Shown here: piece after piece, positions 17,093 through 39,394 of the stretch
How positions within the stretch are numbered: the stretch's first letter is position 1
Layout: each line of letters opens with the position of its first letter
Origin: Planctomycetota bacterium
Lineage (GTDB): Bacteria > Planctomycetota > UBA1135 > UBA2386
Direction of reading: 5' to 3'
Assembly (NCBI GenBank): GCA_947501605.1
Contig: CANMWZ010000005.1
Location: forward strand, 32,001-96,000
Length of the DNA: 64,000 nt
Position numbers and translations under genes: made by a program
The notes under the pieces: generated by a model
Seen by the model: only the letters and a program-made list of their open reading frames with translations
Database searches by the model: none
What the model was told of the DNA's origin: nothing

Positions 17093-17116
17093 TCGGTCCG
17101 CTAGGATCTGCCGGCG

Positions 17117-19481: not shown

Positions 19482-19490
19482 CGGCGACTC

Positions 19491-22400
19491 TTACATGTTG
19501 CGCCGATACTGCCCGCCGACGTCGTACAGCGCCGCCGACATCTGACCGAGCGAGCACACCTTCGCCGCGGTCATCAGCTCCGCGAACACGTTCTTCCCGG
19601 CCAACGCATGTTGCTGCAGAGCCACGAGCGCCGCACTGGCTTCGGCCTCATGCCGCGCCTGGAAGGCCGCCAAGTCGTCGATCTGCGCCTTCTTCTCGTC
19701 CTCGGTCGATCGCATGACCTCGTTGACGATGTGGATCGGCGAGCCAGAGCTCGACAAGAACGTGTTCACGCCGATGACCGGCAGTTCGCCGCTCGCCTTC
19801 TTCTGCTCGTAGTGCATCGACTCTTCTTGGATGCGCGAGCGTTGGTACATCGTCTCCATCGCGCCGAGCACGCCGCCGCGTTCGCTGATGCGCAGGAACT
19901 CGGCGTACACTGCTTCTTCGACCAGGTCGGTCAGCTCTTCGATGACGAAGCTGCCTTGCAGCGGGTTCTCGTTGCGCGCGAGGCCGAGCTCCTTGTTGAT
20001 GATCAACTGGATCGCCATCGCGCGCCGCACCGAGTTCTCGGTCGGCGTCGTGATCGCCTCGTCGTAGGCGTTGGTGTGCAGCGAGTTGCAGTTGTCGTAG
20101 ATCGCGTAGAGCGCCTGCAGCGTCGTCCGGATGTCGTTGAAGTCGATCTCCTGCGCGTGCAGGGAGCGGCCCGACGTCTGGATGTGGTACTTCAGCATCT
20201 GGCTGCGCTCGTTGGCGCCGTACTTGCGCTTCATCGCGCAGGCCCAGATGCGGCGTGCGACGCGCCCGATGACCGAGTACTCCGGGTCGATGCCGTTGCT
20301 GAAGAAGAAGCTCAGGTTGGGCGCGAAGTCATCGATCGCGAGGCCCCGACTCAGGTAGTACTCGACGAACGTGAAGCCGTTGCTCAGCGTGAAGGCGAGC
20401 TGCGTGATCGGGTTCGCACCGGCCTCGGCGATGTGGTAGCCGCTGATCGAGACCGAATAGAAGTTGCGCACCTTGTTGGCGGTGAAGAACTCCTGCACGT
20501 CGCCCATCATGCGCAGGGCGAACTCGGTGCCGAAGATGCAGGTGTTCTGCGCCTGGTCTTCCTTCAGGATGTCGGCCTGCACCGTGCCGCGCACCGTTTG
20601 CAGGGTGTCTTGCGCGATCTTGTCGTAGACAGCTTTCGGGAGCACCTCGTCGCCGGTGACGCCCAAGAGCAGGGTGCCGAGTCCGTCGTTGCCGGTCGGC
20701 AGTTCAAAGCGGTAGCGCGGGCGCGGAAGCGCGCGGAACTTGGCGTCGATCTTGGCCTCGACTTCGGCGCGCAGACCGTGCGCCTCGATGTACCGCTCGC
20801 AGCGCTGATCGATCGCCGCGTTGAGGAAGAACGCGAGCAGCATCGGCGCCGGGCCGTTGATCGTCATCGACACCGACGTCACCGGGTCGCAGAGATCAAA
20901 CCCCGAGTAGAGCCGCTTGGCGTCGTCGAGCGTGCAGATCGACACGCCGGCGTTGCCGATCTTGCCGCGGATGTCCGGGCGCAGTGCTGGGTCTTCGCCG
21001 TAGAGCGTGACCGAGTCGAAGGCCGTCGACAGCCGCTTGTAGGGCTGCCCGTAGGACAGGTAGTGGAAGCGGCGGTTGGTGCGCTCCGGGCCGCCTTCGC
21101 CGGCAAACATGCGCGTCGGGTCTTCGGACACGCGCTTGAACGGATAGACGCCGGCGGTGAACGGGAAGCGGCCCGGTACGTTTTCGATCAGCAGCCAGCG
21201 CAGGCGGTCGCCGTGGCTGCGGTAGCGCGGCAGTGCGACCTTGGGGATGCGGAGGCCGGACAGCGAGGTGGTGTGGTTTGGCACCCGCACTTCGTTGCCG
21301 CGCACCGAGAACACGGTTTCGTCGGCGGCGTAGCTCTTGGCCATGCCGTCGTAGGCGGCGAGCAGTTTCTGGCACTCGACGTCGAGCAGGACGAGTTGCT
21401 GCGAGAAGGCCGCATCGAGTTCGGCTCGCGCTGCGGTTGCCGTTGCCGGCAGCATCGCCGCGGCGGCGCGCAGTTGGTGAACGCGTTCGGCCGTGTCGGC
21501 CTGAGTCTCGGCCCAGGATCGATAGGCGCGGTTTTGCTCGACGATCTCGGCGAGGTAGCGCGTGCGTTCTGCGGGCACGATGCTCGACATGGTCGGCTCG
21601 CCGATGGTGAGCGGCAAAGTGCTTTGCCACGCGCCCGGGCGGATGCGATCGAGCGCGCCGCAAAGCTGCTTGTAGAGCCTGCTCGTGCCCGGATCGGCAA
21701 ACGTCGACGCCATCGTGCCGTAGACCGGCATCGATTCGACCGGCTGGTCGAACGCCTTCTTGTTGCGTTGGTAGGCCTTGCGCACTTCGCGCAGTGCGTC
21801 CCTCGCCCCACGGCGGTCAAACTTGTTGATCGCGACCAGGTCGGCGAAGTCGAGCATGTCGATCTTCTCGAGCTGGCTCTGGGCGCCGAACTCCGGCGTC
21901 ATCACGTAGAGCGACAGGTCGGCGTGCTCGGTGATCTCGGTGTCCGACTGACCGATGCCCGAGCTTTCGAGCACGATCAAGTCAAAGTCCGCGCAGCGCA
22001 ACACGTCGAGGCCATCCTGCACCGAGTCCGACAAGGCGACGTTGGCGCGCCGGGTCGCCATCGAGCGCAAGTAGCAGCGGTCGGAGCGGATCGCATTCAT
22101 GCGAATGCGATCGCCAAGCAGCGCGCCGCCACTGCGTCGCCGCGTCGGGTCGACGCAGAGCACGCCGATGCGCATCTTCGGGAAGTCGAGCAGGAAGCGG
22201 CGCAGGAGTTCGTCGATCAGCGAGCTCTTGCCGGCGCCGCCGGTGCCAGTGATCCCGAGCACTGGGGCCACCCGTGCCAGCTTCGCGCGCCGGGCCTTTA
22301 GCTCTGGTCGATAGCGTTCTCCGTCATGCTCGACCAAGGTGATCGCGCGTGCGATCGCCGCTTGGTTCAGACTGTCGAGCTGCGGCAGTTGCGCATCGGG

Positions 22401-22904
22401 CGCGGCGACGGCGAAGTCGCAGTGCGACAACATGTCATCGACCATGCCCTGCAGCCCAAGCGTGCGGCCGTCGTCGGGCGAGTAGATGCGGGTGACGCCG
22501 TAGGCCTGCAGTTCGGCAATCTCCGCCGGCAGGATCACGCCGCCGCCGCCGCCGAACAGTTGCACGTGTTGGGCAGAGCGCGCGTCCAGCATGTCGCGCA
22601 TGTAGCGGAAGAACTCGTTGTGTCCGCCCTGGTAGGACGTGACTGCGATGCCCTGCGCATCTTCCTGGATGGCCGCGTCGACGATCTCTTGCACCGAACG
22701 GTTGTGACCGAGATGGATCACTTCCGCGCCAGACTGCTGCGCGATGCGGCGGAAGATGTGGATCGAGGCGTCGTGGCCGTCGAACAGCGCCGTCGCGGTG
22801 ATCAGCCGAATCTTGTTGTGAGCCTGAAATGGGCTCGCAGGGATCGGCGTTCCCGACGCAGCGGCATTGGCCGCCGAAGAAGGGTCTTGGGTGCGCGTCG
22901 CCAT
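19491..22904 (-). CDS. icmF: Fused isobutyryl-CoA mutase/GTPase chaperone IcmF
   Basis: B12-binding N-terminus (LFDGHDA), MeaB-like GTPase ([13 protein letters not shown]) and mutase barrel with PTRMFAGEG (Phe specificity residue); ends GGQYRRNM. Confidence 0.95.
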
Positions 22905-23056
22905 GGATCGAGTGGGGAGGAGTTATACCGACGCGTGCGGGGCATCGCCCTGCGACTTGCCGCGCAGTTCGACGCGCCCGCTCTCTTGGTTGCGCACGCA
23001 GGCTCACGGTTGCGCTGCTCGGGCATGAGCTTGCGCTACGTGGGCCTGGGTTCGCG

Positions 23057-23482
23057 CTACTCGGCTGCGGGCTCTTCGACCTCGACGATCGAGAAGTGCT
23101 GGCTCACGATCTTCCAGTCGTTGCCCAGCCTACAGACCGAGAAGGTGCAGCGACCGCCTTGTTCGTGGCCGCGCCCCTCTGGGTCTATCTGCAGCAACTT
23201 CCAGCAGCCGGCGACTGTGGCGAACTGATCCTCGAACACCTGGATGTCGATGTCGCGCAGTTCGAGTTTCACCGACTCGAGGTAACGGAACTCCTGGTCC
23301 AGCACTTCCTCGAAAGCGCCCCAGCCGCGGTCGTGCCGGCCGGACGCATCCAAGTTCTGGAACCGCTTGTCGGTCCAGAAGTGTGAACGGTAGGTCTTCA
23401 GATCGCGGCTGTTGAACGCCTGCCGCATGCTGCGGAAGAAGTCCTCCAGTTCCTTCAAGCTCTCAACGCTCATGGGGACCAT
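23057..23482 (-). CDS. NTF2/SnoaL-like (DUF4440-type) protein
   Basis: AFNSRDL...WKIVSQHFS fold signature; alternative ATG at 23473. Confidence 0.75.
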   Translation of the reverse strand: MVPMSVESLKELEDFFRSMRQAFNSRDLKTYRSHFWTDKRFQNLDASGRHDRGWGAFEEVLDQEFRYLESVKLELRDIDIQVFEDQFATVAGCWKLLQIDPEGRGHEQGGRCTFSVCRLGNDWKIVSQHFSIVEVEEPAAE

Positions 23483-23548: not shown

Positions 23549-24922
23549 TCAGCGATGGATACGGCTGTAGAGCGGCTCGTTGGCTAGCTCGTAGACCACC
23601 CTGCCGTTCACGATCGCCACTTCGACGAAGGTCCTATAGTGCATGGGATCACCATCGAGAATCAAGATGTCGGCGTCCTTGCCTGCTTCGAGGGACCCAA
23701 TTCGGTGGTCGACCCCCAGGATCTTGGCCGCGTCCAGAGTCAGAGTCCGGAGCGCCTGGCTCGACGTCATGCCGCCGCGGACGGCGAAGGCCGCGTCGAC
23801 CGTGGGCGTATTCAAGTCCATTCCCAGAAGCCCGTTGGTGCCGACACCCGCGCCACCGAACATGCCGACCGGGCAGGTTACGGCGAGTGGGATACCCGCC
23901 TGATTGCACAGCGCGGCGGAGGCGAGGTTGGAGCCGGTGCGGTCGGGGTCGGCCGGATCCGCGGGTACGCGATCTCGCGGCGACAAGATCACCATCGAGT
24001 CGGTCGCGGCGATTTCGTCGGCGCAGAGCCACGCCGACAGCGGCTTGACCAGGACCACGCCGGTGCCGAGTTCGGCCGCGATCTGCATCGCACTGCGGAT
24101 GGCATCCAGGTCGGATCCAGCCCCGGTGCGACCGCCGCCGAACGGGTTGAAGCCGCCGCCACCGAGCTGGAGCCACAGCTTGGACTTGCCGCTCAGGATG
24201 TCGAGGATCTTCTCGGTGCCGGCCGGCGCCTTTGGCGGCTTGGCAGTCGGGTCCTCAGACTTCTTGGCCAAGAAGTCCTCCTGCGCCCGTCGGTGCTCCT
24301 TGGCTTGCTTGACCAAGTCGCGGAACTTCTCACGCTCGCCGGCCGGAAGCTGCGCGTTCATGCCGAGGACGGTGCCTTCTTGCAGCACCATGTCCTCGAC
24401 CTTGCCCCAGGCGAGTTTGACCACGGCGGCATCGCCGGCGGGGGAATTGCCGCCGCGGGGGGCGCCGGCGAGGAACGACGTCACGCCCGCAGCCAGGCCC
24501 TGCTTGATCTCCGGATCGAACGGGTTGCAGCTGTCGATCCAAGGCGTGCCCCGTCCTTGGCCCATGCCGGCGCCGTAGACACAAACGAAGCCGGGGCAGA
24601 CCGTCTTGCCCTTGGCGTCGATCACGGTCGTGCCTTCTGGCAGCTCGATCTTGTGCCCGACCGCCAGGATCTTGTCGTCGCCGATGAGCACGGTGGCGCC
24701 AGTAATGCGTTGTCCGGTGCCGAGGTAGACATCGCCGCCGGTGATCGCGGTGTGCTTCTTGGGCTTGCCGTCGGTGGCCTGTGGGGCCGCCGGTTGCTCC
24801 GCGGCGGGCGAGCCACCGCCTTCGCCCTGGCCGCCGCGATTGAACCGGCCGCGGCGCTGCGCCGTGAGGTCTGGGCTCAACAGCAGCAGGGCAACGAGAC
24901 TGGCGAGGATCGGGAGTCGCAT
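23549..24922 (-). CDS. Secreted amidohydrolase-family protein A8 (metal ligands absent)
   Basis: IDAKGKTVCPGFVCVYG (no HxH); GSLEAGKDADILILDGDP; signal peptide. Confidence 0.85.
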   Translation of the reverse strand: MRLPILASLVALLLLSPDLTAQRRGRFNRGGQGEGGGSPAAEQPAAPQATDGKPKKHTAITGGDVYLGTGQRITGATVLIGDDKILAVGHKIELPEGTTVIDAKGKTVCPGFVCVYGAGMGQGRGTPWIDSCNPFDPEIKQGLAAGVTSFLAGAPRGGNSPAGDAAVVKLAWGKVEDMVLQEGTVLGMNAQLPAGEREKFRDLVKQAKEHRRAQEDFLAKKSEDPTAKPPKAPAGTEKILDILSGKSKLWLQLGGGGFNPFGGGRTGAGSDLDAIRSAMQIAAELGTGVVLVKPLSAWLCADEIAATDSMVILSPRDRVPADPADPDRTGSNLASAALCNQAGIPLAVTCPVGMFGGAGVGTNGLLGMDLNTPTVDAAFAVRGGMTSSQALRTLTLDAAKILGVDHRIGSLEAGKDADILILDGDPMHYRTFVEVAIVNGRVVYELANEPLYSRIHR

Positions 24923-24933
24923 GGTCGTAGTCC

Positions 24934-26454
24934 TCAGCGGGCCTGGGTGTCGGATTCGATCTTGCGGCCTTCGAGCCACACCGATCGGAGTTCGCTAGTG
25001 GGGTCGAGCGGATCGCTCGAGAACAGCAGTAGGTTGGCCTTCTTGCCGGCCTCGAGCGTGCCGCATTGGCTCTCGAGTCCGAGTGCCTTGCTCGGCACCA
25101 GGGTCACACCGCGCAGCGCGACGTCGCGCGGCAGTCCGGCGCGCACTTGTTCCATCAGGCGGAAGAACAACGTGCGCACGCGCGCCGGGCTGTCGCCGAG
25201 GACGAAGCCGACTTCGATGCCGGCGTCGTGGAGCGACCGCACCGGGTTCACCACGTAGCGACTGCGTGGGCGGACGCTGAGGTCGGGTGGGACGAGCACG
25301 GCTGCCTTCATCGCCTTCAGTTCGTCGATCACGAGGTCGAATGCGCCAGCCTGCGTGTCGAACGACTCCGTGCAGATCGTGCGCGAGAACGTGAGGTCCT
25401 TGCCACCAGCATGGAGCCAGTGCAGCAGGTCCGCCGCCGAGTTGAGCTGCACGATCGCCTTGTGCTTGCCTTCGATCAGGTCCGCGAGCACCTCGATGTT
25501 GGGGTCCTTCTTGTCTTCTGGCTTTGGCCCCTGCGCCTTGTCCGCTGTCGGTGCGCCCTCGGGCTTCTTGTCGTCGGCCTTCGGCGGCTCTTGCGGCTTG
25601 GGTTGCTCTGGCTTTGGTTGCTCTGGCTTGGGCTGGTCGGGCTTTGGCGGCTCCGGCTTCGGTGGCTCCGGTGGCGGCTGCGGATCGCTGGGCTTCGGCG
25701 CTTCGGCGGGTTTCGCCTCGCCACCTGGTTTGCTGCCGTCGGCGGCTTTGGCTTCCGGCTTCGGCGCTTCCTTCGGTGCCTTGCGCGCTGCCACCGCCTT
25801 GTTGGCCGCTTCGAACCCGTCCTTCAGGGCCTTCTTGACGCGCGCGTCCCGTTGCATGCCGAGGAACACGAACGCGTCGTCGTCGACGACCAGCGCCTCG
25901 AGCGTGGTGCCATCGGGCTTGAGCACCGCGCCAAACCCGGGGAACCCATCGCCTGGTGGTGTCAGCGCCAGCGTGGTGATGCCGGCGCGCAGCAGTTCGC
26001 CGAACACCTCTTGCTTGGGGTCGAGTCGCTCGGCGACCTTGGTTGCGGCGCTGTTTTGCACGCCGCGGGCGCCGCTGTCCGGCGGTGGCGTGCCTTGACC
26101 TCGGCGACCACCTCGACGCGGACCGGCCTCGACCGAAAACGTCGGCGGCGGCGAGACCAAACCGGCGCGGGAGTGCGCGCTGACGAGGCCTGGCATCAGC
26201 GTGCCGCCCTCGCAGTCAACGATGCGCGCGCCGGCGGGCGCGGCAACGTCGGCGCCGACGGCGACGATCTTGCCGTTGCGTACGACGAGCGTGCCGCGCT
26301 CGATGGGGGCGCCGCTGATCGTCAGGATGCGCGCGTTGGTGAACGCGATCGGTCGCACGTCCTGCGCGCGAAGTCCCGCGGCGCATAGGCCGAGCGCCAG
26401 CACAGCCGCGCGCAACGCGAAGCAACGGTTCCGTCGAGGGTTCGTTCGGAGCAT
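24934..26454 (-). CDS. Secreted amidohydrolase-family protein A7 (degenerate site; Pro/Lys/Glu-rich insert)
   Basis: MPGLVSAHSR; GTLEAGKKANLLLFSSDP; signal peptide. Confidence 0.85.
   Translation of the reverse strand: MLRTNPRRNRCFALRAAVLALGLCAAGLRAQDVRPIAFTNARILTISGAPIERGTLVVRNGKIVAVGADVAAPAGARIVDCEGGTLMPGLVSAHSRAGLVSPPPTFSVEAGPRRGGRRGQGTPPPDSGARGVQNSAATKVAERLDPKQEVFGELLRAGITTLALTPPGDGFPGFGAVLKPDGTTLEALVVDDDAFVFLGMQRDARVKKALKDGFEAANKAVAARKAPKEAPKPEAKAADGSKPGGEAKPAEAPKPSDPQPPPEPPKPEPPKPDQPKPEQPKPEQPKPQEPPKADDKKPEGAPTADKAQGPKPEDKKDPNIEVLADLIEGKHKAIVQLNSAADLLHWLHAGGKDLTFSRTICTESFDTQAGAFDLVIDELKAMKAAVLVPPDLSVRPRSRYVVNPVRSLHDAGIEVGFVLGDSPARVRTLFFRLMEQVRAGLPRDVALRGVTLVPSKALGLESQCGTLEAGKKANLLLFSSDPLDPTSELRSVWLEGRKIESDTQAR
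25595..25685 (-). repeat. Imperfect 15-bp coding tandem repeat (about 6 units, PKPEQ/PKPEP)
   Basis: ggcttgggttgctct / ggctttggttgctct-type units on the + strand. Confidence 0.8.
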
Positions 26455-26459
26455 CAGGA

Positions 26460-27884
26460 TCACCAAGCGGGGCGAGCGGGGTTGCGGCGATAGCAGATCG
26501 TGCCGTTCACGACGAACAGCTTGACGTGACTGCGCGGGTCGAGCGGATCGCCGCTCCACACGCCGAGGTCGGCGTCCTTGCCGACATCGAGGGAACCAAC
26601 GCGATGATCGATGCCGAGAAAGCGCGCGTTGTTGATCGTGAGGGCGCGCAGGCCGACTTCGTGCGGCAGTCCTAGTCGAACCCCCATGGCGGCCTGCAGC
26701 GTGAGCTGTTCTTGCGGCACGACCGGCGAATCGGTGTTGACGCCGATGCCGTCGCGGCCGACGCCTTTCACTTGGTCGCGCCAGCCGTCTTCGCCGTCCC
26801 AATACCAGTCGGCCATCAGGCCGCTGATCTCGTTGTAGCGCGTGTCGAAATGGTAGACGCGCGGGCCAGCGGCGATCGGCAGACCCGCTTCACGCATCTC
26901 CTGGCGCATGCGAAAGGCGTCGAATTCGCCGTGCACCACGACGGTCCAAAGACCGAGCTCGAGGCGCAGTTCCTGCAGCGTCTGCAACACGACCTGGTAG
27001 ATCTGCGTGTGCACCGACAGAGGGAACTCGTGCAGGTAGAGGCCGCGCAGCAGTTCGAGTGTCGGGTCGAACTTCGGCTTCTCGCCCTTGCCCTGCTGGA
27101 ACGCCAGGTAGGCATCGTGGTAGCGCTTGCCGTCGAGCAGCGTCGAACGGATGCCGTCGCTCATGCCCATCATGCCGGCGCCGAGGTCGCCCGAAGCGCG
27201 CTCGGGGTTTCCTGCCTGGGCGATCTTCAAGCTGCCGGGAAAGCGCACCAGCGCCTCGTCCGGGCTCCTGCCCCAAGTCTTCGTCAGGGTGCCGAAGCCG
27301 CCCATGTTCGAACCCGAGCCCGGGATGTAGAGCGCGGTCGAGACGCCGCCCGCGCGGGCCATCTGCATCTGGTCGTGTTCCAGCGTGATCAGGTCGAGGG
27401 TCCGGAACTCGGGGTTGGTCGGATGGACAGTGTCGTTGAGATCAAAGCTGGCGCTGGCGATGTGGCAGTGCGGTTCGATGAACCCAGGCACGAGCCACGC
27501 ATCGCCGCAGTCGACGACTTCGTAGCCGTCGGGCACGGCGATGTCTTTGGCGCGCCCGATCGCTTCGATCACTCCGTTCCTGGTGACCACGACGCCGTTC
27601 TCGATCGGCGGCGCGGTGATGGGCAGCACCTTCTCGGCGAAAAACACGTAGCCCGGGCTCGGTAGGCCCCGTGGGCCCCATTTCGCCACCTGATGCTCGG
27701 CCTCGGTCGCGGGGCGGTTGGGATGCCAGACATCGAGCGAGTTGCCGGTGTCCTTTGGGATCGAGCCCTTGGGAATCGGGTCGCGGCGTTCGGTCGAAGG
27801 CGTCTGTGCCCGCAGCGAGCTGATGGTCAAGGCCGCGATTGCGAACGTGAGGACGACGGCGGATCGGTAGGTCGGACGAGTCAC
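26460..27884 (-). CDS. Secreted amidohydrolase-family protein A6 (complete binuclear metal site)
   Basis: PGFIEPHCH (HxH), SLKIA (Lys), SVHTQ (His), VVHGE (His), VNTDSPV (Asp), GSLDVGKDADL; GTG start overlaps the upstream TGA. Confidence 0.9.
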   Translation of the reverse strand: MTRPTYRSAVVLTFAIAALTISSLRAQTPSTERRDPIPKGSIPKDTGNSLDVWHPNRPATEAEHQVAKWGPRGLPSPGYVFFAEKVLPITAPPIENGVVVTRNGVIEAIGRAKDIAVPDGYEVVDCGDAWLVPGFIEPHCHIASASFDLNDTVHPTNPEFRTLDLITLEHDQMQMARAGGVSTALYIPGSGSNMGGFGTLTKTWGRSPDEALVRFPGSLKIAQAGNPERASGDLGAGMMGMSDGIRSTLLDGKRYHDAYLAFQQGKGEKPKFDPTLELLRGLYLHEFPLSVHTQIYQVVLQTLQELRLELGLWTVVVHGEFDAFRMRQEMREAGLPIAAGPRVYHFDTRYNEISGLMADWYWDGEDGWRDQVKGVGRDGIGVNTDSPVVPQEQLTLQAAMGVRLGLPHEVGLRALTINNARFLGIDHRVGSLDVGKDADLGVWSGDPLDPRSHVKLFVVNGTICYRRNPARPAW

Positions 27885-30694
27885 TTTTGTACCTCGCGGT
27901 TGTCGACGGCGATCGCGCCGTTGCAGGCGACCAGCAGCACGCGGCTGCCGGGTTCGAACGGGTCTCCCGAGAACACGACGAAGTCCGCGTCGCGACCGCG
28001 CTGCAGCGAGCCGATGCGGTCGTCGAGTTGGAAGGCGCGCGCGGCATTGCTGGTGATCGCAGCGAGCGCTTGGTCTGGTGCCATGCCGTAGCGCACGGCG
28101 TAGGCCGCGTGCAGTGGCAAGAACCGCGCGCCGGCGCAGTCGCCAGTGCCGAACACGACCGGCAGGTCGAGGTCGCAGAATCGGGCGGCGGCATTCACGA
28201 GCTTGGCACCGTCCTCGCGAACCACTTCGGGTTCGAGCAGGACGGGTGGGCGGCTCTGACCCAACATGCTGCTGTCGTCGAGCAGGGCGTCGGCGCCGTG
28301 CAGCACGAACGGGAGCTTCTCGGCCGTCAACAGCGCGACGACGGCGCGGAGCGCGGCGAGGCGCTGCACGCGCACGACGAGCGCGGCGTGACCGCCGACG
28401 ACGGCGCGCATGGGTTCTTGGTTCTGGTCGACGTCCGGCTTCTTCGGTGCATCGCTGGGCTCGTCGTCGGCGAGCGCGGACGACGGCTTGCTGGTGCTGC
28501 CGCCAGTGGTCTTCGACACGCGCTTGGCTGTGAGTGGCTGGTCGCCCATGGGGCCGAGCGACAGGGTGCCGTCGAACGCATCGTCCTTGATGGTGCCTTC
28601 GATCGAGGCCGAGCCGCCCATGCCGCGGAACTCGAGCTTGAGCTTCGCTCCGTCGTAGGAGCCGGTCTCGATGCTCTGCTCCGGCAGTTCGCGTTCGCCG
28701 ATCGACATGCGGATCTTGCCGGTGACCTTCTCGCCTTGCAGTTCGAGGTCGAGCAGCACCTTGATCTGGAACCGGCCCTGAAGATCCAGCATCGCCTCCC
28801 AGGTGCCGGTGACGGGGTCCGGTTTGGCCTCCGCCTTCGGCTCGGGCGTCGGCGGCGGCGGCGCCGCTGGCTTCTTGCCCGACTTGTAATCGGCCATCGC
28901 CAGCTCCCAATCGGTCCAGGTCTTGGCGTATGCGCGCGCCCGGTCGATGGCTTCCTTCAGCGGTTTCTCGCTGTCGGGGCCGATCGCATCGAAGACCATG
29001 CGCTGCGCACAGATTGCGCGCACGAGCATGGCGTCGTGGTCGCGAGCGCCGGTCTTCACCGCCGTCACGCGCCCACTCATGAGCCCACCGTCCTTGCCCG
29101 AAGCGAGTACCGTGGTCACCCCTTGTTCGAGCGCCGCTTCGAACATCGGGTCGTCGAACGCGATCACCGTGTCGAGCGGCTGGCCGCTTGCACCGACGGG
29201 CACGCCGCTGCCTTCGCCGGCGAGACCGAGGTGGCTGTAGGCATCGACAAAGCCAGGCGTCATCACGGCGGTGGGCAGATCGACAATGCGGGCGCCGTAG
29301 GGGATCGACAGTTGTTCGCCGACGGCTTTGACGCGGCCGTTCTGCACCAGCAGCACGCCATCGCGAAACACCTTGCCGGTGCCGTCGAGGATCTTGCCGC
29401 AGCGGATCGCCAGCAGTTGGTCCTCCGTCGGCCGCTGGAAGGCGCGGTGGCCGTCGATCCAGGTGCTCTCGACCATCGTGCCGATGGCCAGCGGATCGCC
29501 ACTCAGCACGACGAAGTCGGCGTCCTTACCGGGCGCCAGCGTGCCGACGCGGTCTTGCACGCCGAGGATCGCGCTGGCATCGGCGCCAACTGCGCGCAGT
29601 GCGGCGGTAGCGGGCAGGCCGTTGCGGACCGCGAGGCCGACGGCGAGTAAGTAGTCGCGCAGCGGCGTGCCGGGCGCCGGTGCTAGGCCGACGGCCAGTC
29701 CGGCTGCGGCGGCGCGCGCGGGCGCATCGAAGTGCGCTTCGGGCAACTTCTGCGCGCGGTCTTCGCCGCCGGGATTGCTGCGGCCAAGCTGAACGGGCAG
29801 GCGAAAGACGGCGGCGAGACCCTGCTGCTTGCAGAGATCGGCGAGCGGCGCGATCTCCATCGGGTTCTCGAGCACCATCGGCATGCCGAACTCGCGCTGC
29901 AAGGTCAGGGCCCGGCGGATGTCGGCTGCGCGCCACGCCGCGGCGCGCACCGGCAGCCTGCCGGCGGCGGCCTGCGCCAGCGCCGTGCTGTCGTACTGGT
30001 TCTGAGCCGCCCCTTGCCCCTGAAGTCCGGTGGCGGTCTTCGCTTCGCGCAGCAGCGCGCGCAACTCGGCGAGCACCGCGATACGCGCAGTGGGCGTTTG
30101 GATGCGCGCGGGCAGCAGCGGGTCTTCGTCAGTCGGGTGGACCGTCGGCTCGAAGACGCGAGGCGCGTTGGTGCCGCCGTCGTCGAAGTTGAGGCGCAGG
30201 GACGCGTTCTCGCTCAGCACGCGCTGCACGAGATCGCGGCCCGCCGTCTTGACCACCGCGCCTTGGCCGGAGCACAGGCGTTGACGACCCGGCGAGAGAT
30301 AGACGGTAGTGACGCCACCCTCGAGTGCCGAGCGCAGTGGGTATTCGAAGTCGAAGCCGTCGATCGCGAGCACGTCGGGCGTGACGGCATACTCGTCGTC
30401 GCGTTCGGCGCCGAGATCGCTGTCGACCGCCACCAAGCCGGGCATCACAACCCGCCCGCTGGCGTCGACGATCGGCAGGTCGGTCGGTGCCGCGGTCTCG
30501 ATCGCCGCGATCTTGCCATTGCGCACGACCAGCCACGCATCGGCGACCGGCGGACTGCCATCGCCGCGGAGCAAGGTGCCGCAGCGCACCGCGAAGTCAC
30601 CGCTCGGCGGCGCCGGCGTCGCGGCATCCTGGGCGACGCTGGTTGGCGAGCAGAGTGCGAGCGCCGCGGTGAAGCGAAGCCACGTGCGCGACAT
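27881..30694 (-). CDS. Secreted tandem two-domain amidohydrolase-family protein A5 (both sites degenerate)
   Basis: Domain 1: MPGLVAVDSD...GTLAPGKDADFVVLSGDP. Domain 2: TPGFVDAYSH...GSLQRGRDADFVVFSGDP. Confidence 0.87.
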   Translation of the reverse strand: MSRTWLRFTAALALCSPTSVAQDAATPAPPSGDFAVRCGTLLRGDGSPPVADAWLVVRNGKIAAIETAAPTDLPIVDASGRVVMPGLVAVDSDLGAERDDEYAVTPDVLAIDGFDFEYPLRSALEGGVTTVYLSPGRQRLCSGQGAVVKTAGRDLVQRVLSENASLRLNFDDGGTNAPRVFEPTVHPTDEDPLLPARIQTPTARIAVLAELRALLREAKTATGLQGQGAAQNQYDSTALAQAAAGRLPVRAAAWRAADIRRALTLQREFGMPMVLENPMEIAPLADLCKQQGLAAVFRLPVQLGRSNPGGEDRAQKLPEAHFDAPARAAAAGLAVGLAPAPGTPLRDYLLAVGLAVRNGLPATAALRAVGADASAILGVQDRVGTLAPGKDADFVVLSGDPLAIGTMVESTWIDGHRAFQRPTEDQLLAIRCGKILDGTGKVFRDGVLLVQNGRVKAVGEQLSIPYGARIVDLPTAVMTPGFVDAYSHLGLAGEGSGVPVGASGQPLDTVIAFDDPMFEAALEQGVTTVLASGKDGGLMSGRVTAVKTGARDHDAMLVRAICAQRMVFDAIGPDSEKPLKEAIDRARAYAKTWTDWELAMADYKSGKKPAAPPPPTPEPKAEAKPDPVTGTWEAMLDLQGRFQIKVLLDLELQGEKVTGKIRMSIGERELPEQSIETGSYDGAKLKLEFRGMGGSASIEGTIKDDAFDGTLSLGPMGDQPLTAKRVSKTTGGSTSKPSSALADDEPSDAPKKPDVDQNQEPMRAVVGGHAALVVRVQRLAALRAVVALLTAEKLPFVLHGADALLDDSSMLGQSRPPVLLEPEVVREDGAKLVNAAARFCDLDLPVVFGTGDCAGARFLPLHAAYAVRYGMAPDQALAAITSNAARAFQLDDRIGSLQRGRDADFVVFSGDPFEPGSRVLLVACNGAIAVDNREVQK

Positions 30695-30696
30695 GT

Positions 30697-31992
30697 TCAC
30701 TTGCTCCCCGAGGCAGCCGCGCCGGTGCTCGATGTGTCGAGCAGATACTTCAGCCGTTGGTCCTTGCTGCGCTCGTAGACCAGTTGGCCTTCGAGGACGA
30801 CGGTCTCGACCCAAGTGGTCGCCTGCATCGGGTCACCGGTCACGATCTGCAGGTTGCCGAGCTTGCCGACTTCGAGCGTCGCGAGCTGGTCCTGCAGGCC
30901 GAGCAACTCGGCCGGCACGGTGGTGAGCGCAGCGTAGGCTGTGCTGGCGTCGATGCCTTGGCGCACGCAGGCAGCGAGCTGCCACCAGGGATACGAAGTC
31001 GGGCCGCTCTGCCCGAGGCTCAATGCGAACGGGATGCCGGCATCGGCCAACAGCTTGGCGACGCGGATCTTGGTCTCCTTGCGCGTCTCGGGGTCGGTCT
31101 CGAAGAACTCCAGCGTCTCGTCGAGCACAACGGGGTGTTTGGCGGCCTTCAGGAGGTCTACGGCGCGGTGCACTTGCGGCCCCAGCACTAGGACCAGATC
31201 GAGTTCTGTCTGCAGGCGCATGGCCTCCGGCACTTCGGCCGAGCCGGGCACATAGAGCCAACCGCGGGTCTTCTTCTGCAGCAGATCGAGCACCGGCTTC
31301 TTGGTGCGATCCCACTCTTCGGTCCACTTCTTGTCCTTGTCGATCGCACCCGACTTCTGCTCCTGTTCGAACTCGGCCTTGCGGCGGTCGAAGTCGGCGA
31401 GGTACTCGCGCGCGTCTTCGAGGGCTCGGCGCAGTTTGCGAATCTGCAGCAAGCGACCACCGCCCTGCGGTTGCAACGACAGCTTGAGCCCACTCTGGGT
31501 GCTGACGGCCATATCCTCGACCGTTCGGCCGAACGGGCGAACGACGATGCCCGAGCCGCCGAGCAGCGTCATGTTGCCGGGGATGGAATGCACGGTGCCA
31601 ATGCCCGAACGCAAGCAGTCCTCGAAGAAGGGGCTCGCCGGATCGAGTGCGTCGGAGATCTTGACGAACGCGACGTTTTCCATGCGCTCGTTGGCGCCGC
31701 GGGCACCGCCTTGGCTGTGCGCGAGGACCCAAGTTGGCAGCACGACTTTGCCGGTCGCGTCGAGGACCTTCGCTTCCCACGGCACTTCGATGTCGGCCAC
31801 GGGTCCGATCTTGGTGATGCGCCCATTCTCGATCAGCACGGTGGCGTTCTCGAGCACGGGCCCGTGCATCGTGTGCACTCGCCCGCCCTTGACCGCGATC
31901 AGGTCCTGCGCGCGCGCAGGAGCCGCGGCCAGCGCGGCGAACAGGAACGCGGACAGCGCGGTCGTTGCGACCGTTCGGCGAGTGGAGTTCAT
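30697..31992 (-). CDS. Secreted amidohydrolase-family protein A4 (degenerate site)
   Basis: LDATGKVVLPTWVLAHSQ; TLEVGKLGNLQIVTGDP; signal peptide. Confidence 0.85.
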   Translation of the reverse strand: MNSTRRTVATTALSAFLFAALAAAPARAQDLIAVKGGRVHTMHGPVLENATVLIENGRITKIGPVADIEVPWEAKVLDATGKVVLPTWVLAHSQGGARGANERMENVAFVKISDALDPASPFFEDCLRSGIGTVHSIPGNMTLLGGSGIVVRPFGRTVEDMAVSTQSGLKLSLQPQGGGRLLQIRKLRRALEDAREYLADFDRRKAEFEQEQKSGAIDKDKKWTEEWDRTKKPVLDLLQKKTRGWLYVPGSAEVPEAMRLQTELDLVLVLGPQVHRAVDLLKAAKHPVVLDETLEFFETDPETRKETKIRVAKLLADAGIPFALSLGQSGPTSYPWWQLAACVRQGIDASTAYAALTTVPAELLGLQDQLATLEVGKLGNLQIVTGDPMQATTWVETVVLEGQLVYERSKDQRLKYLLDTSSTGAAASGSK

Positions 31993-33224
31993 TGCTTGGA
32001 GGTCGTGTCGTTGCCGTTGATGACGACGGTCGTAGGAGTCGAGGCCGGATCGAATGGGTCGGTGGACCAGACGACGAAGTCTGCGTCCATGCCGGCCTCG
32101 AGGCGGCCCTTGCGCTCAGCGAGGCCGAGTAGCTTGGCCGGTTGCGAGGTGACTGCCGCGAGCGCTTGTTGGCGTCCGAGGCCGAAGCGGTGGGCGAACA
32201 TTGCTTCGCGCACGAGTTCGGTGGCGTTGGTGTTGCTGCCGGTGGTGATGACGAACGGGATGCCTCGGTCCTGCAGGTGCTTCAGGGTCGCAAAGCGCGG
32301 TTCGGCGCCGTCCTGGCCAGCCGAGCCGCCGACCGCGCTGGCACTCGGGGCGCCGACCATGACCCACACGCGCGCTTTCTGCAGTTCGTCGAGGACGAGG
32401 TACGCGTCCTGGGCCTCGTCGATCACCGGCGTGTAGCCGAACTCATCGGCGAGTCGCAGCGCCGTGCGCAGGTCCTGCTCGCTGCGCGCCGTGGTCACCA
32501 GCGGCAGCGATCCCTGCAAGACGCGGGTGAGCACCGACAGGTCGCGCTGTTCTTGCGTCGTGCGCGTCGTCTTGGTGCCGCCCTGGGTCTCGGCGATCTG
32601 CTCCTTGGCGTCGAAGAACGCGCGCCGCGCCGACCAGATGACGCCCATGCGCGAAGTCGGGCGCCGGTAGTAGATGGAGTCGACGTTGCCGCCGCGGATC
32701 GCGCGATTGCCCATCGACGGCTCGGCGCCGAGGACCAGGCGCAACGAGGCCTCGTCGCGCAGGACCATCGCCGCTGGGTCGCTGGCCCAGGTCTGCAGCA
32801 CGACCGACAGGCCGCCCATCACGCTGCGGGTGCCCGGCATCAAGTGCACGGCAGTCACTCCAGAGTTGCGGGCGCGTGCGAGGGCAGGATTCTGCGGGTC
32901 GAGGCTGTCGAGCACGCGCAGCGCTGGCGTGATCTCCGTGCTCTGCTCGTTGCCGTCGGCTTCGGCCACGCTGCCATCCCAGGCGGCGTCGATCAGGCCC
33001 GGCGTGATCACGAGGCCGTTGCACTCGACGATGCGGGCGCCGTCCGGGATCGTCGTGCTGGCGCCGCCAACGGTCTGCACGCGGCCGTTCTGGATCACCA
33101 GGACTGCGTCGGTGATGGGCGCGCGGTCCCCGGGCCACACGGTCGCGCCGCGGTAGACGACGGGCAGGTCTTGCGCGAACGCCGACGCGGCGAACAGGGC
33201 AACGGTGGTCGCAACGCGCAGCAT
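31989..33224 (-). CDS. Secreted amidohydrolase-family protein A3 (metal ligands absent)
   Basis: TPGLIDAAWD; PTSRMG; GRLEAGMDADFVVWSTDP; signal peptide. Confidence 0.85.
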   Translation of the reverse strand: MLRVATTVALFAASAFAQDLPVVYRGATVWPGDRAPITDAVLVIQNGRVQTVGGASTTIPDGARIVECNGLVITPGLIDAAWDGSVAEADGNEQSTEITPALRVLDSLDPQNPALARARNSGVTAVHLMPGTRSVMGGLSVVLQTWASDPAAMVLRDEASLRLVLGAEPSMGNRAIRGGNVDSIYYRRPTSRMGVIWSARRAFFDAKEQIAETQGGTKTTRTTQEQRDLSVLTRVLQGSLPLVTTARSEQDLRTALRLADEFGYTPVIDEAQDAYLVLDELQKARVWVMVGAPSASAVGGSAGQDGAEPRFATLKHLQDRGIPFVITTGSNTNATELVREAMFAHRFGLGRQQALAAVTSQPAKLLGLAERKGRLEAGMDADFVVWSTDPFDPASTPTTVVINGNDTTSKQ

Positions 33225-34450
33225 CACAGCGTCTCCTTGCTCTTCGGCGCCGGTTCGTTGGGCTTGGTCGCGCAAGCGCCGGCGGCGCCGAACAGCAACT
33301 GGCCGTCGCCGTAGACGGCGAGCAAACGGGAACCAAGGTCGAGGGGATCGCCGTCGAAGACGACGAAGTCGGCATCGCAGCCGCGGCGCAGCGAGCCGTG
33401 CGTCGCCGCCACGCCGCACAGTTCCGCCGGTGTGCGGGCGAGCGCAGCCAGCGCCGTCTTCTTGCTGCAACCGTGTTGCACCGCGAGCGCCGCGCTGCTG
33501 CGCGTCAAGCGAGGCGAACCAGCAAAGCAGAACGCCACGCCCCTGGCTTCGAAGCGAGCGGGGAGAGTCAGCATCTCATCGCGCAGTTCGGGGCGCAGCG
33601 GCGGCAGGATCACTGCCGCGCGCGCGGCGACGATCTCTTGGATGCAGTCAGAGGCCTCGTTGGCCCCGGCGATCACCGGCTCGATGCCGAGTTCTTTGCA
33701 GAGCGCCAGCGCCGCGAGGATCTCGGCGCGGGTGTCGGCATGCACGACGGCGCGGCGTTCGCCGCGCGCAACGGCGGCGAGCGCAACGGCCTCGGGCCCA
33801 GTCAGCGTGCCACTCTTCGCTTCGCCAAACGCGTTGCGCAACAAGTCGACTGCGCCCATCAGCGAAGTCGGCTGCCGCTCGGGATTGCGCGACGCGGCGA
33901 TCAGCGAGAACTTGGCGTAGATCTGTTCCAGGCGCAGCGAGCCCATGGATTGCGAGTCCTTGCCGCCGACCCCGGGCTCGACCAGCGCGGCGATGCCGCC
34001 GGCGACGTTGGTCGACGAGGGCGCGAGCGCGCAGCTCGTGAACCCGTGTTCGGGCAGTTGCCGCAGCATGGCGCCGGCTGGGTCAAACGCGTCGGCGGCC
34101 AGTAGGTCTGGCGTCAGCGCTACGGCGCGCTCGGCGAGGTCTTGTTCTTGGCCCAGCGTGCTGTGCGCAAGCACGAAGCCCGGCACGATCGTGGCGCGAT
34201 CGAACGCGACGATGGTGGCGCGGGCGCGGGCTTCTGGCGGGATCTCGCTGCCGAGCTGCGCCACCTTGCCGTCGCGGACCAACATCTCACCCGGTGAGAT
34301 CACGGTGTCCGGTGCGATGACCAGCGTGGCGCAGCGGACCAGCAGTTCTGGTGGTTGCTGCGCTTGCAGGGAGGCCGTCGCCGCGAGGGCCAGGAATACG
34401 AACGGCAGCAGCGCGCGGCCATTCGCCAGTGAATCTCGGGACGTCTTCAT
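33224..34450 (-). CDS. Secreted amidohydrolase-family protein A2 (degenerate site)
   Basis: VPGFVLAHST; PTSLMG; GSLRRGCDADFVVFDGDP; signal peptide. Confidence 0.85.
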   Translation of the reverse strand: MKTSRDSLANGRALLPFVFLALAATASLQAQQPPELLVRCATLVIAPDTVISPGEMLVRDGKVAQLGSEIPPEARARATIVAFDRATIVPGFVLAHSTLGQEQDLAERAVALTPDLLAADAFDPAGAMLRQLPEHGFTSCALAPSSTNVAGGIAALVEPGVGGKDSQSMGSLRLEQIYAKFSLIAASRNPERQPTSLMGAVDLLRNAFGEAKSGTLTGPEAVALAAVARGERRAVVHADTRAEILAALALCKELGIEPVIAGANEASDCIQEIVAARAAVILPPLRPELRDEMLTLPARFEARGVAFCFAGSPRLTRSSAALAVQHGCSKKTALAALARTPAELCGVAATHGSLRRGCDADFVVFDGDPLDLGSRLLAVYGDGQLLFGAAGACATKPNEPAPKSKETL

Positions 34451-36342
34451 CGCGGCTCCTTGTTCGGCTGCGTCGATTCGTACTGCACCGCGCCGGCCGA
34501 CCACACCGCGAGCACGCGGCAGTCGCTCTGCAACAAGGGCCGGTCGCAGATCAACAAGTCCGCGAGCTTGCCCTGTTGCAGCGAGCCCACGTCCTTTTGC
34601 ACGCCGAGGATCTCGGCTGGCGTAAGCGTGATGGCGCGCAGTGCAGCGCTGGCATCGAGGCCGTTGCCGACCGCAGTCGCGGCCATCAGCGGCAGGGAGC
34701 TGGCGCGGCGGCCGCTGCCACTGGCGATTGCAAAGACGACGCCGGCGTCGTGGAGCGCCTTGGGCAGAGCATCCGGTGCGAACGCCGCGAACGGTTCCGG
34801 CAGTTCCGTGGCGAAGGTGCCGGTCAGCACGCAGGCGATCGAAGCCGCGGCGAGCTCCTTGCGGACGCTTGCCGCACCGATCATGTTCTCGAACACCAAC
34901 CCGGGCACCTTCTTCGTGCGCGCCACGGCGATGCAGGCGCGGACTTCGTCGGGGCGCACGAGGTGCACGCGCAAGGGCAACGTGCCATCGAGCACCTTGA
35001 GCAGGGTGTCCTTCACTGGGTCGCGTGGGTCGGCCTTCGGATACTTGGGCCGCTCGGGTGGCTTCTCGTCGCCCTTGGCGTCGGGTTTGGCGCCAGCGTT
35101 ATCGGGCTTGGCGCCGGTGGGGAGGCCCGCGGCCGGCTTTGGCTCCTGCGGCTTTGGCGCGTCGGGCTTTGGTTGGTCGGGCTTTGGCTCCTGCGGCTTT
35201 GGCTCGTCCGGTTTCGGCTGCTCTGGCTTCGGCTGCTCTGGTTTCGGTTCTGCTGGCTTCGGTTCCGCAGGCTTTGGTTGCTCTGGCGGTGGCGACTCGG
35301 GCTTGGGTTGGTCGGGCTTGGGCGAAGGTGCCGGCTCGTCGCCGCCGGGTCGGCCGCCGCGGCGGCCACCGCGGTTCCCGCGCTGCCCAGGACCACGTGG
35401 CGCCTCGCCGCCGCCTTCGGTCCCGTCCGGAACCTTGGCGTCGGGCTTCGGCGCGTCGTCCCCGCCTGCGGCCTTCGGCGTCTCGTTCTTCGCGGCGTCC
35501 GCCTGCGCGGGCTCGTCCTTCTTGTTCTTCTTCTCGTGCCAGGCGACGTAGTCGGCGAAGTCCTTGGTGTACTTCTCCAGCGCCTTCTGCTGCTCGTCGG
35601 CCTTCTTGCGATAGTCGTCGAGCCCTTGGAACGCACCGAAGGCGCCTTCGATCGCACGCTGGCGATCGAGTGGGTGGGTGCCGGTCGGCGGGGCCGCGAG
35701 CTGCAGGCCGACACCCGCTTGCTCTTTGCCCGGCATCACCGAGAACCCGTTCTGTTTCGGCCGCACGATGGCGCCGAGGCCGGACCACGGTGTGCCGCGG
35801 CTGTTGCTGACATAGGCCGTGGTGATGCCGCTCTGGACGATGCTGTCTTCGCGATCTTGGCGCCGGCCGAGGGCTTCGGCGATCGGTGTCGCGGCGTCGG
35901 CCGAGCTGTCGTTGCGCGCGGCGTCGTCAAGAAACGCGTCCGAGCTGGCGTCGACGAGGCCGGGGTAGATGTGGGCGCCATCGAAGCGCACGGTTTCGGC
36001 GCCCTCGGGGATCTCGACTTCGCCCTGCTTGCCGACGGCGACGATGCGATCGCCGCGCACCAACACGACGCCTTCTTCGATGTCGGAAGCCGCGACCGGG
36101 TGCACGTGACTCGCCAACACCGCGACCGTGCGGACCGGTCGGCGACCGCCGCGCCGGGCCGCGGGGATCGCGGCTGGTTCCGTCGCTGCGGGCACGACGT
36201 CGGCCGGAGCTACCGGTTGTTCCGCCGCAGGCGGTGCCGGCTCCTGCGGCTTGGTTGCATCGGGCTCCTGCGCCAGCAGCGCAGTGGTGCAGAGGGGCAG
36301 GAGCCAGGCGAACAGGACCGAGGACGTCAGGTTTGGCCGCAT
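34447..36342 (-). CDS. Secreted amidohydrolase-family protein A1 (HxH absent; long low-complexity insert)
   Basis: YPGLVDASSD; GSLQQGKLADLLICDRP; signal peptide MRPNL...ALLA-Q. Confidence 0.85.
   Translation of the reverse strand: MRPNLTSSVLFAWLLPLCTTALLAQEPDATKPQEPAPPAAEQPVAPADVVPAATEPAAIPAARRGGRRPVRTVAVLASHVHPVAASDIEEGVVLVRGDRIVAVGKQGEVEIPEGAETVRFDGAHIYPGLVDASSDAFLDDAARNDSSADAATPIAEALGRRQDREDSIVQSGITTAYVSNSRGTPWSGLGAIVRPKQNGFSVMPGKEQAGVGLQLAAPPTGTHPLDRQRAIEGAFGAFQGLDDYRKKADEQQKALEKYTKDFADYVAWHEKKNKKDEPAQADAAKNETPKAAGGDDAPKPDAKVPDGTEGGGEAPRGPGQRGNRGGRRGGRPGGDEPAPSPKPDQPKPESPPPEQPKPAEPKPAEPKPEQPKPEQPKPDEPKPQEPKPDQPKPDAPKPQEPKPAAGLPTGAKPDNAGAKPDAKGDEKPPERPKYPKADPRDPVKDTLLKVLDGTLPLRVHLVRPDEVRACIAVARTKKVPGLVFENMIGAASVRKELAAASIACVLTGTFATELPEPFAAFAPDALPKALHDAGVVFAIASGSGRRASSLPLMAATAVGNGLDASAALRAITLTPAEILGVQKDVGSLQQGKLADLLICDRPLLQSDCRVLAVWSAGAVQYESTQPNKEPR
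35135..35322 (-). repeat. Imperfect 15-bp coding tandem repeat (about 12 units, PKPxx pentapeptide)
   Basis: ggctttggctcctgc / ggtttcggctgctct / ggcttcggttccgca-type units on the + strand. Confidence 0.85.
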
Positions 36343-36856: not shown

Positions 36857-37477
36857 TTGACCCAACCCAGCGAGCGGCGGCGTCCCGTCCGAGAAGGCCT
36901 CGGCTTCTTCGGTACCTTCCTTGGGCAACCTGGCTCGATCGGCGCGGTGCTTCCCAGTACGCGCTACCTCGCGCGCGCGTTGGTCGGACGGCTCGAACTG
37001 CAGTCCGACGAACTGGTCGTCGAGTTCGGACCGGGAACCGGTCCGATGACCGCGGTGATCCGCGAACTGCTGCCGCCGCGCGCCAAGTACGTCGGCATCG
37101 AGTTGGAAACGAAGTTCCACACCTTGCTGGTCAAGCGCTTCCCGACGATGACGTTCCATCTGGGCAGTGCCGGTGACTTGCCCGCGATCCTGCGCGAACA
37201 CGGCTTGCCCAAGGCCATGCGCATCATCTCAGGGCTGCCCTTCGCCAGCCTGCCGGCGAAGGTCCAGGACGCCGTCGTGAATGGAGTGGTGGAGTGTCTG
37301 CATCCGGCTGGCGACTTCCGCACGTTCCAGTACATGCACGCGTATGGCATGGCCAAGGCGCGCCGGTTCCGCTCGCTGATGGATGAGCGCTTTGCGAGCT
37401 TCGAGCGCATTGGGCCGATCCTGCGCAACATGCCGCCGGCCTACGTGCTGCGCTATTGGGCTCGGCGCGACGCCTGA
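36857..37477 (+). CDS. Phospholipid/ornithine-lipid N-methyltransferase (PmtA/OlsG-like)
   Basis: Motifs [34 protein letters not shown] and RNMPPA. Confidence 0.8.
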   Translation: MTQPSERRRPVREGLGFFGTFLGQPGSIGAVLPSTRYLARALVGRLELQSDELVVEFGPGTGPMTAVIRELLPPRAKYVGIELETKFHTLLVKRFPTMTFHLGSAGDLPAILREHGLPKAMRIISGLPFASLPAKVQDAVVNGVVECLHPAGDFRTFQYMHAYGMAKARRFRSLMDERFASFERIGPILRNMPPAYVLRYWARRDA

Positions 37478-37538
37478 CCCTGAACGCTCTGCCTGCCGTA
37501 GATGAGGGGCACAGCGTGGGGTCTCGGGGCGCGAGCCG

Positions 37539-38657: not shown

Positions 38658-38707
38658 GTACGTTGGTCGGCTAGGACGGGGGCGCGGCACGAGTCGGGCA
38701 CAACCTA

Positions 38708-39394
38708 GTGCTCGCCATCGTCGGGGCCCAGGTTGCATTGGCACCAAGACACCGCCACCATGTTCGCCCCTTGTCCGTCTCACTCCGAGTCCTTTGCCTG
38801 ATACTGCCCCTGGCGTTGTCGCTCGGCGGTTGTGCGGGGCGGACGCCTCTGCCGCACGCCGGCTCGCGTCGTCCGTTGGCACTCACTCTGCCGCACGAGG
38901 GCGACCACATCACCGATGTGCGCGTGTACTACGCCATTCCCATCTTGCAGAAGTCGTTCTTCTGGGACGGCAATAGCGAAGTCGACAGTGCAGGTCTCAG
39001 GATCCGTCAGTTGTGGCAGGTCGAGAACGATGTTGCACTGGGTGTCGGGCTGGCGGCTACGAACTGGTTTCTCGGCGGTCCCGACGTGCAGTCGATCGAG
39101 GCCGAAGGCGTTGGCCGAGCCTACGTCTACCGCAGCGACGACGACAGCTATGGCGTGTTCTGCGACGTGACCGGCGGTTTTCAGCAAGCGACGGACTCCA
39201 TTCCACCCGGCGGCACCGAGTGGAACTTCACGTTTTCCTTCGGGCCCGGCGTCGTCGTGCCGCTGCAACGAGCGCTCGACCTGCAGACTGGACTCACGTA
39301 CCACCACATCTCCAATGCACTCGGTCGCGACAGCCCGCGCAACCCGAGCCAGAACGAGGCGCAGCTCTGGATCGGACTCGCGTTCCGGTTCTGA
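38708..39394 (+). CDS. PagL-like outer-membrane acyloxyacyl hydrolase (start uncertain, probably downstream)
   Basis: Amphipathic beta strands, WNFT, YHHISNA catalytic-type motif and C-terminal Phe. Confidence 0.75.
   Translation: MLAIVGAQVALAPRHRHHVRPLSVSLRVLCLILPLALSLGGCAGRTPLPHAGSRRPLALTLPHEGDHITDVRVYYAIPILQKSFFWDGNSEVDSAGLRIRQLWQVENDVALGVGLAATNWFLGGPDVQSIEAEGVGRAYVYRSDDDSYGVFCDVTGGFQQATDSIPPGGTEWNFTFSFGPGVVVPLQRALDLQTGLTYHHISNALGRDSPRNPSQNEAQLWIGLAFRF

Follow-up and report, generated by a model that had tools for sequence, protein, structure and literature searches.

The window analysed here, a stretch of 64,000 nucleotides from a Planctomycetota bacterium (assembly GCA_947501605.1, contig CANMWZ010000005.1, positions 32,001 to 96,000), contains an operon of eight consecutive minus-strand genes, named A to H, which encode nine amidohydrolase domains (positions 23549 to 36342; Table 1). 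An earlier note, made from the sequence alone, had proposed this array as a candidate hetero-oligomeric periplasmic machine. The gene and domain count given there is borne out by the coordinates and by Pfam, in which Amidohydro_1 and Amidohydro_3 match all eight genes, and gene E twice, at the C-terminal beta-sandwich. The junctions from A to H are likewise as noted: -4, -1, -4, +2, -4, +5 and +11 nucleotides (nt), minus signs denoting overlaps. The signal peptide claimed for each gene was recovered in all eight by a pattern test of our own, not by a dedicated predictor, as a hydrophobic N-terminus followed by an A-x-A-type site and then Gln; in orthologous loci hydrophobic starts are found at 626 of 634 junctions. 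The shared N- and C-terminal motifs hold in general, the exceptions being D, with PT in place of PG and GN in place of AD, G, which has AN, and A, which ends in DRP.

The paralogues of the window are 22-30% identical over common columns, and the GC fraction of the operon (0.67-0.70; guanine plus cytosine) is similar to that of the remainder of the window. Both a recent amplification, already discounted in the note, and a horizontal island are ruled out by these values. The Pro/Lys/Glu-rich insertion of A is probably an extended flexible arm, with a comparable insertion in G; the length of both differs among lineages. The insertion in E2 is absent from shorter E orthologues (about 820-840 amino acids, aa) and corresponds to no Pfam family, its atlas matches lie below 0.9, and the matches listed in a wide fold search were taken up by E1. 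A promoter and terminator scan of the operon gave no signal above shuffles. In metatranscriptomes, the sampled words of the operon are present at fractions of 0.91, 0.80 and 0.55 in three runs, which come from two freshwater studies (12 runs listed, six with part of the operon); the contigs concerned may be DNA carry-over or the source sample.

Table 1. Genes, domains and insertions of the operon and its downstream neighbours in the window (ligands are counted out of the six metal ligands discussed in the text).
Feature	Position	Strand	Description
Gene A	34447-36342	-	631 aa; exported amidohydrolase-fold probable pseudoenzyme, 1/6 ligands, long Pro/Lys/Glu-rich insertion
Low-complexity Pro-rich (EQPKP-like) insertion of A	35128-35403 (approximate limits)	-	masked stretch, residues 314-405
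Gene B	33224-34450	-	408 aa; decayed site in window copy, 3/6 ligands
Gene C	31989-33224	-	411 aa; probable pseudoenzyme, 0/6 ligands
Gene D	30697-31992	-	431 aa; probable pseudoenzyme, first His and Lys only
Gene E	27881-30694	-	937 aa, two domains (E1, E2)
Domain E1	29435-30694	-	residues 1-420 of E; probable pseudoenzyme, 0/6 ligands, 3OOQ fold
Domain E2	27881-29434	-	probable pseudoenzyme, 3/6 ligands; very short linker to E1
All-beta inserted domain in E2	28511-28807	-	about 100 aa, eight strands
Gene F	26460-27884	-	474 aa, GTG start; only subunit with intact catalytic ligands
Gene G	24934-26454	-	506 aa; probable pseudoenzyme, 2/6 ligands, Pro-rich insertion
Gene H	23549-24922	-	457 aa; probable pseudoenzyme, 0/6 ligands; conserved operon ends here
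SnoaL-like gene	23057-23482	-	141 aa, no signal peptide; 66 nt after H
icmF (fused isobutyryl-CoA mutase)	19491-22904	-	above NCBIfam cut-off

A six-residue binuclear-metal set is known for enzymes of the superfamily (PMC13081902). Aligned to PDB entry 3OOQ, F has all six of these residues (H139, H141, K220, H292, H318 and D385), and the other eight domains of the window have between none and three. The same holds across homologous operons, where the complete set is found in 129 of 133 F domains and in three of 705 domains at the other positions, every one of the three at B (domains longer than 320 residues were counted, with one column of slack at four ligands). By its aligned residues F thus has the ligands of an active binuclear amidohydrolase, which A, B, C, D, E1, E2, G and H do not, and from these counts the array appears to consist of one enzyme and eight probable pseudoenzymes. 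B seems to have been caught in decay and to be live in some lineages, since three of its 86 orthologues keep all six ligands and one further B has five. The independently active homomers which the note had named as the outcome that would refute its proposal are ruled out for eight of the nine domains, because their metal ligands are gone. F is the best conserved member overall (mean identity 0.47 versus 0.30-0.40 for the others) and D the best conserved of the dead positions; C retains invariant pocket-loop motifs, also found in 3OOQ and F.

The closest solved relative is 3OOQ, with a phmmer E-value of 4e-45 for F and, for the F profile, 2e-83 versus 7e-23 for the next entry. The AlphaFold2 model of F (predicted local distance difference test, pLDDT, 92) superimposes on 3OOQ with Z 46.4 and a root-mean-square deviation (rmsd) of 2.5 over 368 aligned residues, the next entry reaching Z 25.4. 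As 3OOQ is the clear best match in sequence and structure, F belongs to a 3OOQ-like subfamily. The model of E1 also matches this entry (Z 44.7, rmsd 2.1, 354 aligned); in the model of the whole of E both domains are well folded (pLDDT 88), and a predicted template-modelling score of 0.54 fixes no orientation of E1 to E2. The predicted models give F, E1 and E2 the amidohydrolase fold, a TIM barrel with a beta-sandwich of N- and C-terminal strands, and for A, B, C, D, G and H the fold is assigned from sequence. None of the NCBIfam equivalogs (HutI, PhnM, Xaa-Pro dipeptidase, dihydroorotase, NagA and others) was reached at its threshold, the best scores being 34-102 bits versus cut-offs of 225-768. 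A complex prediction of F with G (67-row alignment each; score 0.01, mark 0.32) gave no answer and was used neither way.

Conservation of the array was followed first in the order of the window's genome, where 40 relatives were examined and operon loci came from 35, in nine of ten families; four fragmented genomes were left out, and the tenth family (f4), represented by one genome, had no operon match. The D profile matches 83 of 301 sampled genomes of the phylum, 65 of them outside this order and in 21 families. Loci were taken from 40 of these 65, chosen by contiguity and family spread, together with 23 further regions; four named loci were added, labelled Planctomycetota, Planctomycetia or uncultured Singulisphaera metagenome-assembled genome. 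Including the window this gave 98 operon loci. All 79 complete ones have the order A-B-C-D-E1^E2-F-G-H (^ denoting domains fused in one chain), with one to four copies of F, so the conservation of order across Planctomycetota which the note had proposed as a check is found without exception. The 19 incomplete loci comprise 14 cut at contig ends, four that together make up two operons split in half, and one without H locally; no reordered operon is present among the 98. Six of the eight junction types have a median of -4 nt, with starts chosen heuristically. F is single in 49 of the complete loci, double in 26, triple in three and present four times in one. A rule of ten domains, suggested by two F genes in 17 of 34 own-order loci, was weakened by the outside lineages, in which one F is usual. 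One genome (G127) has two complete nine-domain operons (L049 and L169), one of them with an A^B fusion.

Each position is also a lineage of its own, as the note had expected. In a held-out test, profiles built from the window's own family placed 124 of 125 other-family domains at their syntenic position. In a FastTree phylogeny of 885 domains the clades are complete for D (78/78), H (70/70) and F (102/102) and nearly so for C (73/74), E2 (74/75), B (71/72), A (67/68) and G (68/70); four domains of an AT-rich locus (L077) fall within the E1 clade. In an earlier, first tree A was split and two B domains lay outside their group. The ratio of non-synonymous to synonymous substitution rates (dN/dS), taken from four genome pairs, is 0.08-0.36 for the dead domains and 0.06-0.20 for F. 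Judged on these comparisons the positions are separate orthologous lines under purifying selection. In the window's own order F has two old subtypes, each able to be the only F of an operon. Five stand-alone intact F-like genes (L036-L040) form a sister clade, and two further lone F genes (L170, L171) sit in operon-carrying genomes. All such genes lie away from the operon in genomes that also possess it, and they are candidates for alternative catalytic subunits.

The subunits are kept as a set, as seen genome-wide for D, F and H and at the loci for all nine positions. Among the 301 genomes, D, F and H are all present in 74, all missing in 215 and partially present in 12, and F without D or H was never seen; related genomes in these counts are not independent. 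The thresholds were of our choosing (1e-70 for D, 1e-95 for F, 1e-75 for H), and in each genome five candidates were scored. A repeat search covered five of the partial genomes: two had an H just below the cut-off, one a partial match, one an operon running off the contig, and one stayed unexplained. In two genomes (G169, G184) A-E lies apart from F-G-H, and in a third (G076) H is on another contig, so that retention is not a matter of linkage only.

Natural fusions follow the gene order. Stop-free A^B fusions are found in three loci (L054, L073, L169) and in four database proteins, one of them almost identical to L073; A^B^C fusions in two loci (L067, L183) and five database proteins; and G^H fusions in L047 and the database protein P0059. 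The three types come from different families. E1^E2 is a fusion in all intact loci. From the last hairpin glycine of E1 to the first strand of E2 the median distance is 18 residues (minimum 14; 24 proteins), and by its geometry so short a linker should bring the two beta-sandwiches into contact. An apparent D^E1 fusion in L061 spans an assembly gap and was ruled out; one E2^F frame in L174 is an unchecked candidate.

The wider family has the same habit of keeping dead partners, since 45 of the best 150 matches of the D profile are single chains of the order dead-live-dead, besides 22 live-dead and five dead-live proteins. The dead-live-dead chains (P0010, P0012, P0016 and 42 more; 1100-1600 aa) are common, and we found no description of them in the open literature; they are minimal models for the large operon. 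The window's own genome has a split version of this form at another locus (L041; G000:C26, about 19000-23400), where a dead gene comes after a dead^live fusion. In the tree, the first dead domain of the three-domain proteins is the sister of G (support 0.97), and the other domains of the two- and three-domain proteins form clades apart from the operon positions. Among the distant metagenome relatives of F most are lone intact genes and a few are live-dead pairs; the second barrel His of these relatives lies one column off in the alignment. With single, live-dead, dead-live-dead and operon forms found, the number of domain types in the family therefore runs from one through two and three to nine.

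Four metagenome loci (L104-L106, L159) hold two to four tandem family members, all intact, which possibly represent an early stage preceding site loss. An A^B fusion labelled Candidatus Eisenbacteria (P0099) has a nearly intact B site; either the operon may extend beyond Planctomycetota or the bin may be mislabelled. Among ten distant D orthologues, two clusters are labelled Planctomycetota, and a plasmid search returned six distant single matches only.

No flanking gene is conserved phylum-wide around the operon loci. The SnoaL-like gene is linked in 23 loci, from the window's own family and one other; since this linkage is not phylum-wide, its product is probably not a core part of the system. 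In most own-family loci icmF and the SnoaL-like gene both lie downstream of the operon, an arrangement not seen across the phylum. Upstream, at 36857-41047, are genes for a PmtA/OlsG-like methyltransferase, a CehA/McbA-like metallohydrolase, a PagL-like barrel and a PMT-family glycosyltransferase, which are lipid-related with weak Pfam and NCBIfam matches only. Further away on the plus strand, 10168-19481 holds DabA and two NADH-dehydrogenase-subunit-5-like genes (a DAB-type inorganic-carbon pump) and, after them, genes for an FHA-trypsin protease and a hemerythrin, and 46950-54266 a microaerobic respiration cluster with a heavy-metal P-type ATPase, fused cbb3 oxidase subunits I/II (COX1 and FixO) and a FixG-like ferredoxin.

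Taken together, the comparative data make it probable that the operon encodes one periplasmic hetero-oligomer related to 3OOQ, in which a dead scaffold holds exchangeable catalytic F subunits. Repeated duplication within a homo-oligomeric 3OOQ-type ancestor would have given rise to the operon, each chain being exported via Sec. The dead domains would assemble into a fixed scaffold through interfaces kept from the ancestral oligomer, the order of genes may mirror the order of assembly, and F would fill the catalytic slot or slots, with the two old F subtypes and the stand-alone F-like genes as putative interchangeable subunits. The ligand set, invariant arginines near the site and the nearest characterised fold relatives (a carboxypeptidase, prolidases and an isoaspartyl dipeptidase) suggest as the most likely reaction of F the cleavage of an amide adjacent to a free carboxylate, of the peptide or N-acyl-amino-acid type. 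The dead subunits might govern how the site is reached, or bind a substrate or an effector. A 10-mer of eight dead subunits and two F would be our specific guess, prompted by the ten chains in the 3OOQ entry and the 26 operons with two F genes.

Several points weigh against this hetero-oligomer. The number of live genes varies from one to four, so translational coupling alone cannot set a fixed stoichiometry; of the nine-domain stoichiometry put forward in the note, the eight dead positions are indeed fixed and the live one is not. The note's overall reading is thus supported in part: its predictions of order and orthology are borne out, and a fixed nine-domain stoichiometry needs correction. 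No real fusion was found at C-D, D-E1 or F-G, and the operon is broken between E and F in G169 and G184; both observations are compatible with smaller modules. 3OOQ itself is only a putative oligomer, its entry giving a count of ten identical chains, and no conserved gene among those flanking the operon loci hints at a substrate. We infer the single physical complex from comparative genomics, and its stoichiometry and substrate in the same way.

A bolder form of the hetero-oligomer, which we put forward tentatively and hold to be rather doubtful, is a self-compartmentalised periplasmic hydrolase particle, an asymmetric cage of eight non-identical dead positions reprogrammed by exchangeable F subunits. 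Its layout could possibly be A-B-C-D-E1 over E2-F-F'-G-H, as a 3OOQ-like 10-mer. If true, this would be a bacterial counterpart of the proteasome and exosome design on the amidohydrolase fold, and the living one-, two-, three- and nine-domain stages would show the full path from homomer to heteromer.

Among the alternatives, the one which survives best, although we regard it as unlikely, is that the products assemble into a number of smaller heteromers, such as A-B-C, C/D-E and F-G-H modules, derived from dead-live-dead units, with only the F module catalytic today. The fusions do group as A^B^C, E1^E2 and G^H, the operon of G169 and G184 is broken between E and F, and G is sister to the leading domain of the three-domain chains; the middle position of A-B-C, B, is the sole dead one that is sometimes intact, which recalls the dead-live-dead chains. 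However, B does not cluster with the live middle domain of those chains, an A-E part with no live domain would need a usefulness of its own, and D, F and H occur together in 74 of the 86 positive genomes, F never being alone.

Considerably less probable is a structural polymer or scaffold of the cell envelope (filament, lattice or spacer), capped or remodelled by F and tethered by the Pro-rich arms. Eight dead domains out of nine, the head-to-tail fusions with short linkers, which would suit a chain, and the long insertions of A and G are in keeping with it. Against it, the insertion lengths differ among lineages, it is F that is best conserved, and one copy per position with 1:1 coupling would fit a closed particle better. 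Slightly less credible still are independent periplasmic ligand-binding proteins, which would take up different amide substrates in their vacant barrel pockets alongside a single enzyme: the pocket-loop residues kept in C and D and the purifying selection at each position are what such binders would show, but separate gain, loss and reshuffling would be expected of them, whereas set and order are fixed, the fusions obey gene order, and no transporter or sensor is linked among the flanking genes. Finally, nine independent active amidohydrolases with different substrates, as the automatic annotation 'amidohydrolase family protein' and the three intact B orthologues might suggest, or decaying pseudogenes, can practically be dismissed, as the full ligand set is missing in 702 of 705 non-F domains, the reading frames show no disruption and dN/dS does not exceed 0.36.

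The one exported hetero-oligomer which we favour would belong to a real, old and widespread system that has apparently gone undescribed so far; no description of the operon was found in the open literature (listings and abstract starts, with subscription journals and supplements outside this scope). Databases annotate all nine domains as active amidohydrolases, which is wrong for eight. Highly diversified paralogue heteromers with mostly dead subunits are usually regarded as a eukaryotic trait, and an exported bacterial case in which eight positions are fixed as pseudoenzymes, carried by roughly one quarter of the Planctomycetota genomes sampled (74-86 of 301), would come as a surprise to specialists. 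The family still has intermediate stages, some of them within a single genome, B is in mid-decay and the F subtypes are putatively exchangeable, so that it would become testable whether dead paralogous subunits become obligatory through neutral entrenchment or through a new function.

The nearest known system is 3OOQ itself ('amidohydrolase from Thermotoga maritima MSB8', 2010, with no function in the title), which has the same H-x-H, K, H, H and D positions as F; it differs in being one sequence, in ten identical chains with all sites intact, where the operon has nine exported paralogous domains, eight of them dead. The cog1228-type amidohydrolases and IadA (3MTW, 3FEQ/3MKV/2P9B, 1ONW and 8IHQ) share the fold of F (Z 23-25) and a binuclear site with bridging Lys. 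Of these, 3MTW is the Cc2672 carboxypeptidase, 3FEQ, 3MKV and 2P9B are prolidases, 1ONW is the isoaspartyl dipeptidase IadA and 8IHQ the ochratoxin hydrolase ADH3. The cog1228-type enzymes and isoaspartyl dipeptidase are homomers of live subunits; they are 16-23% identical to F, and their substrates are not transferable to it. Passages in two bile-salt-hydrolase preprints deal with a different, 3ICJ-like group. In the dead-live-dead and live-dead proteins a live domain is tied covalently or genetically to dead paralogues as in the operon, with two or three domain types in place of nine; these proteins also give the signal of the operon's subfamily.

In principle the closest parallels are the paralogue-derived heteromers with dead subunits, namely the eukaryotic 20S proteasome, the exosome core, CCT, plastid and cyanobacterial ClpP/ClpR and the vertebrate CRMP hetero-tetramers. 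In these a homomer has given way to fixed positions, many of them inactive, and exchangeable catalytic subunits are found as in the immunoproteasome. The proteasome, exosome, CCT and ClpP/ClpR have other folds and compartments than the operon, and CRMP shares the amidohydrolase fold (4B90, Z 20.4). Unlike all of them, the system described here is bacterial, exported and encoded in one colinear operon, with eight distinct dead positions per live type; by analogy it would work like these heteromers, yet it belongs to none of them.

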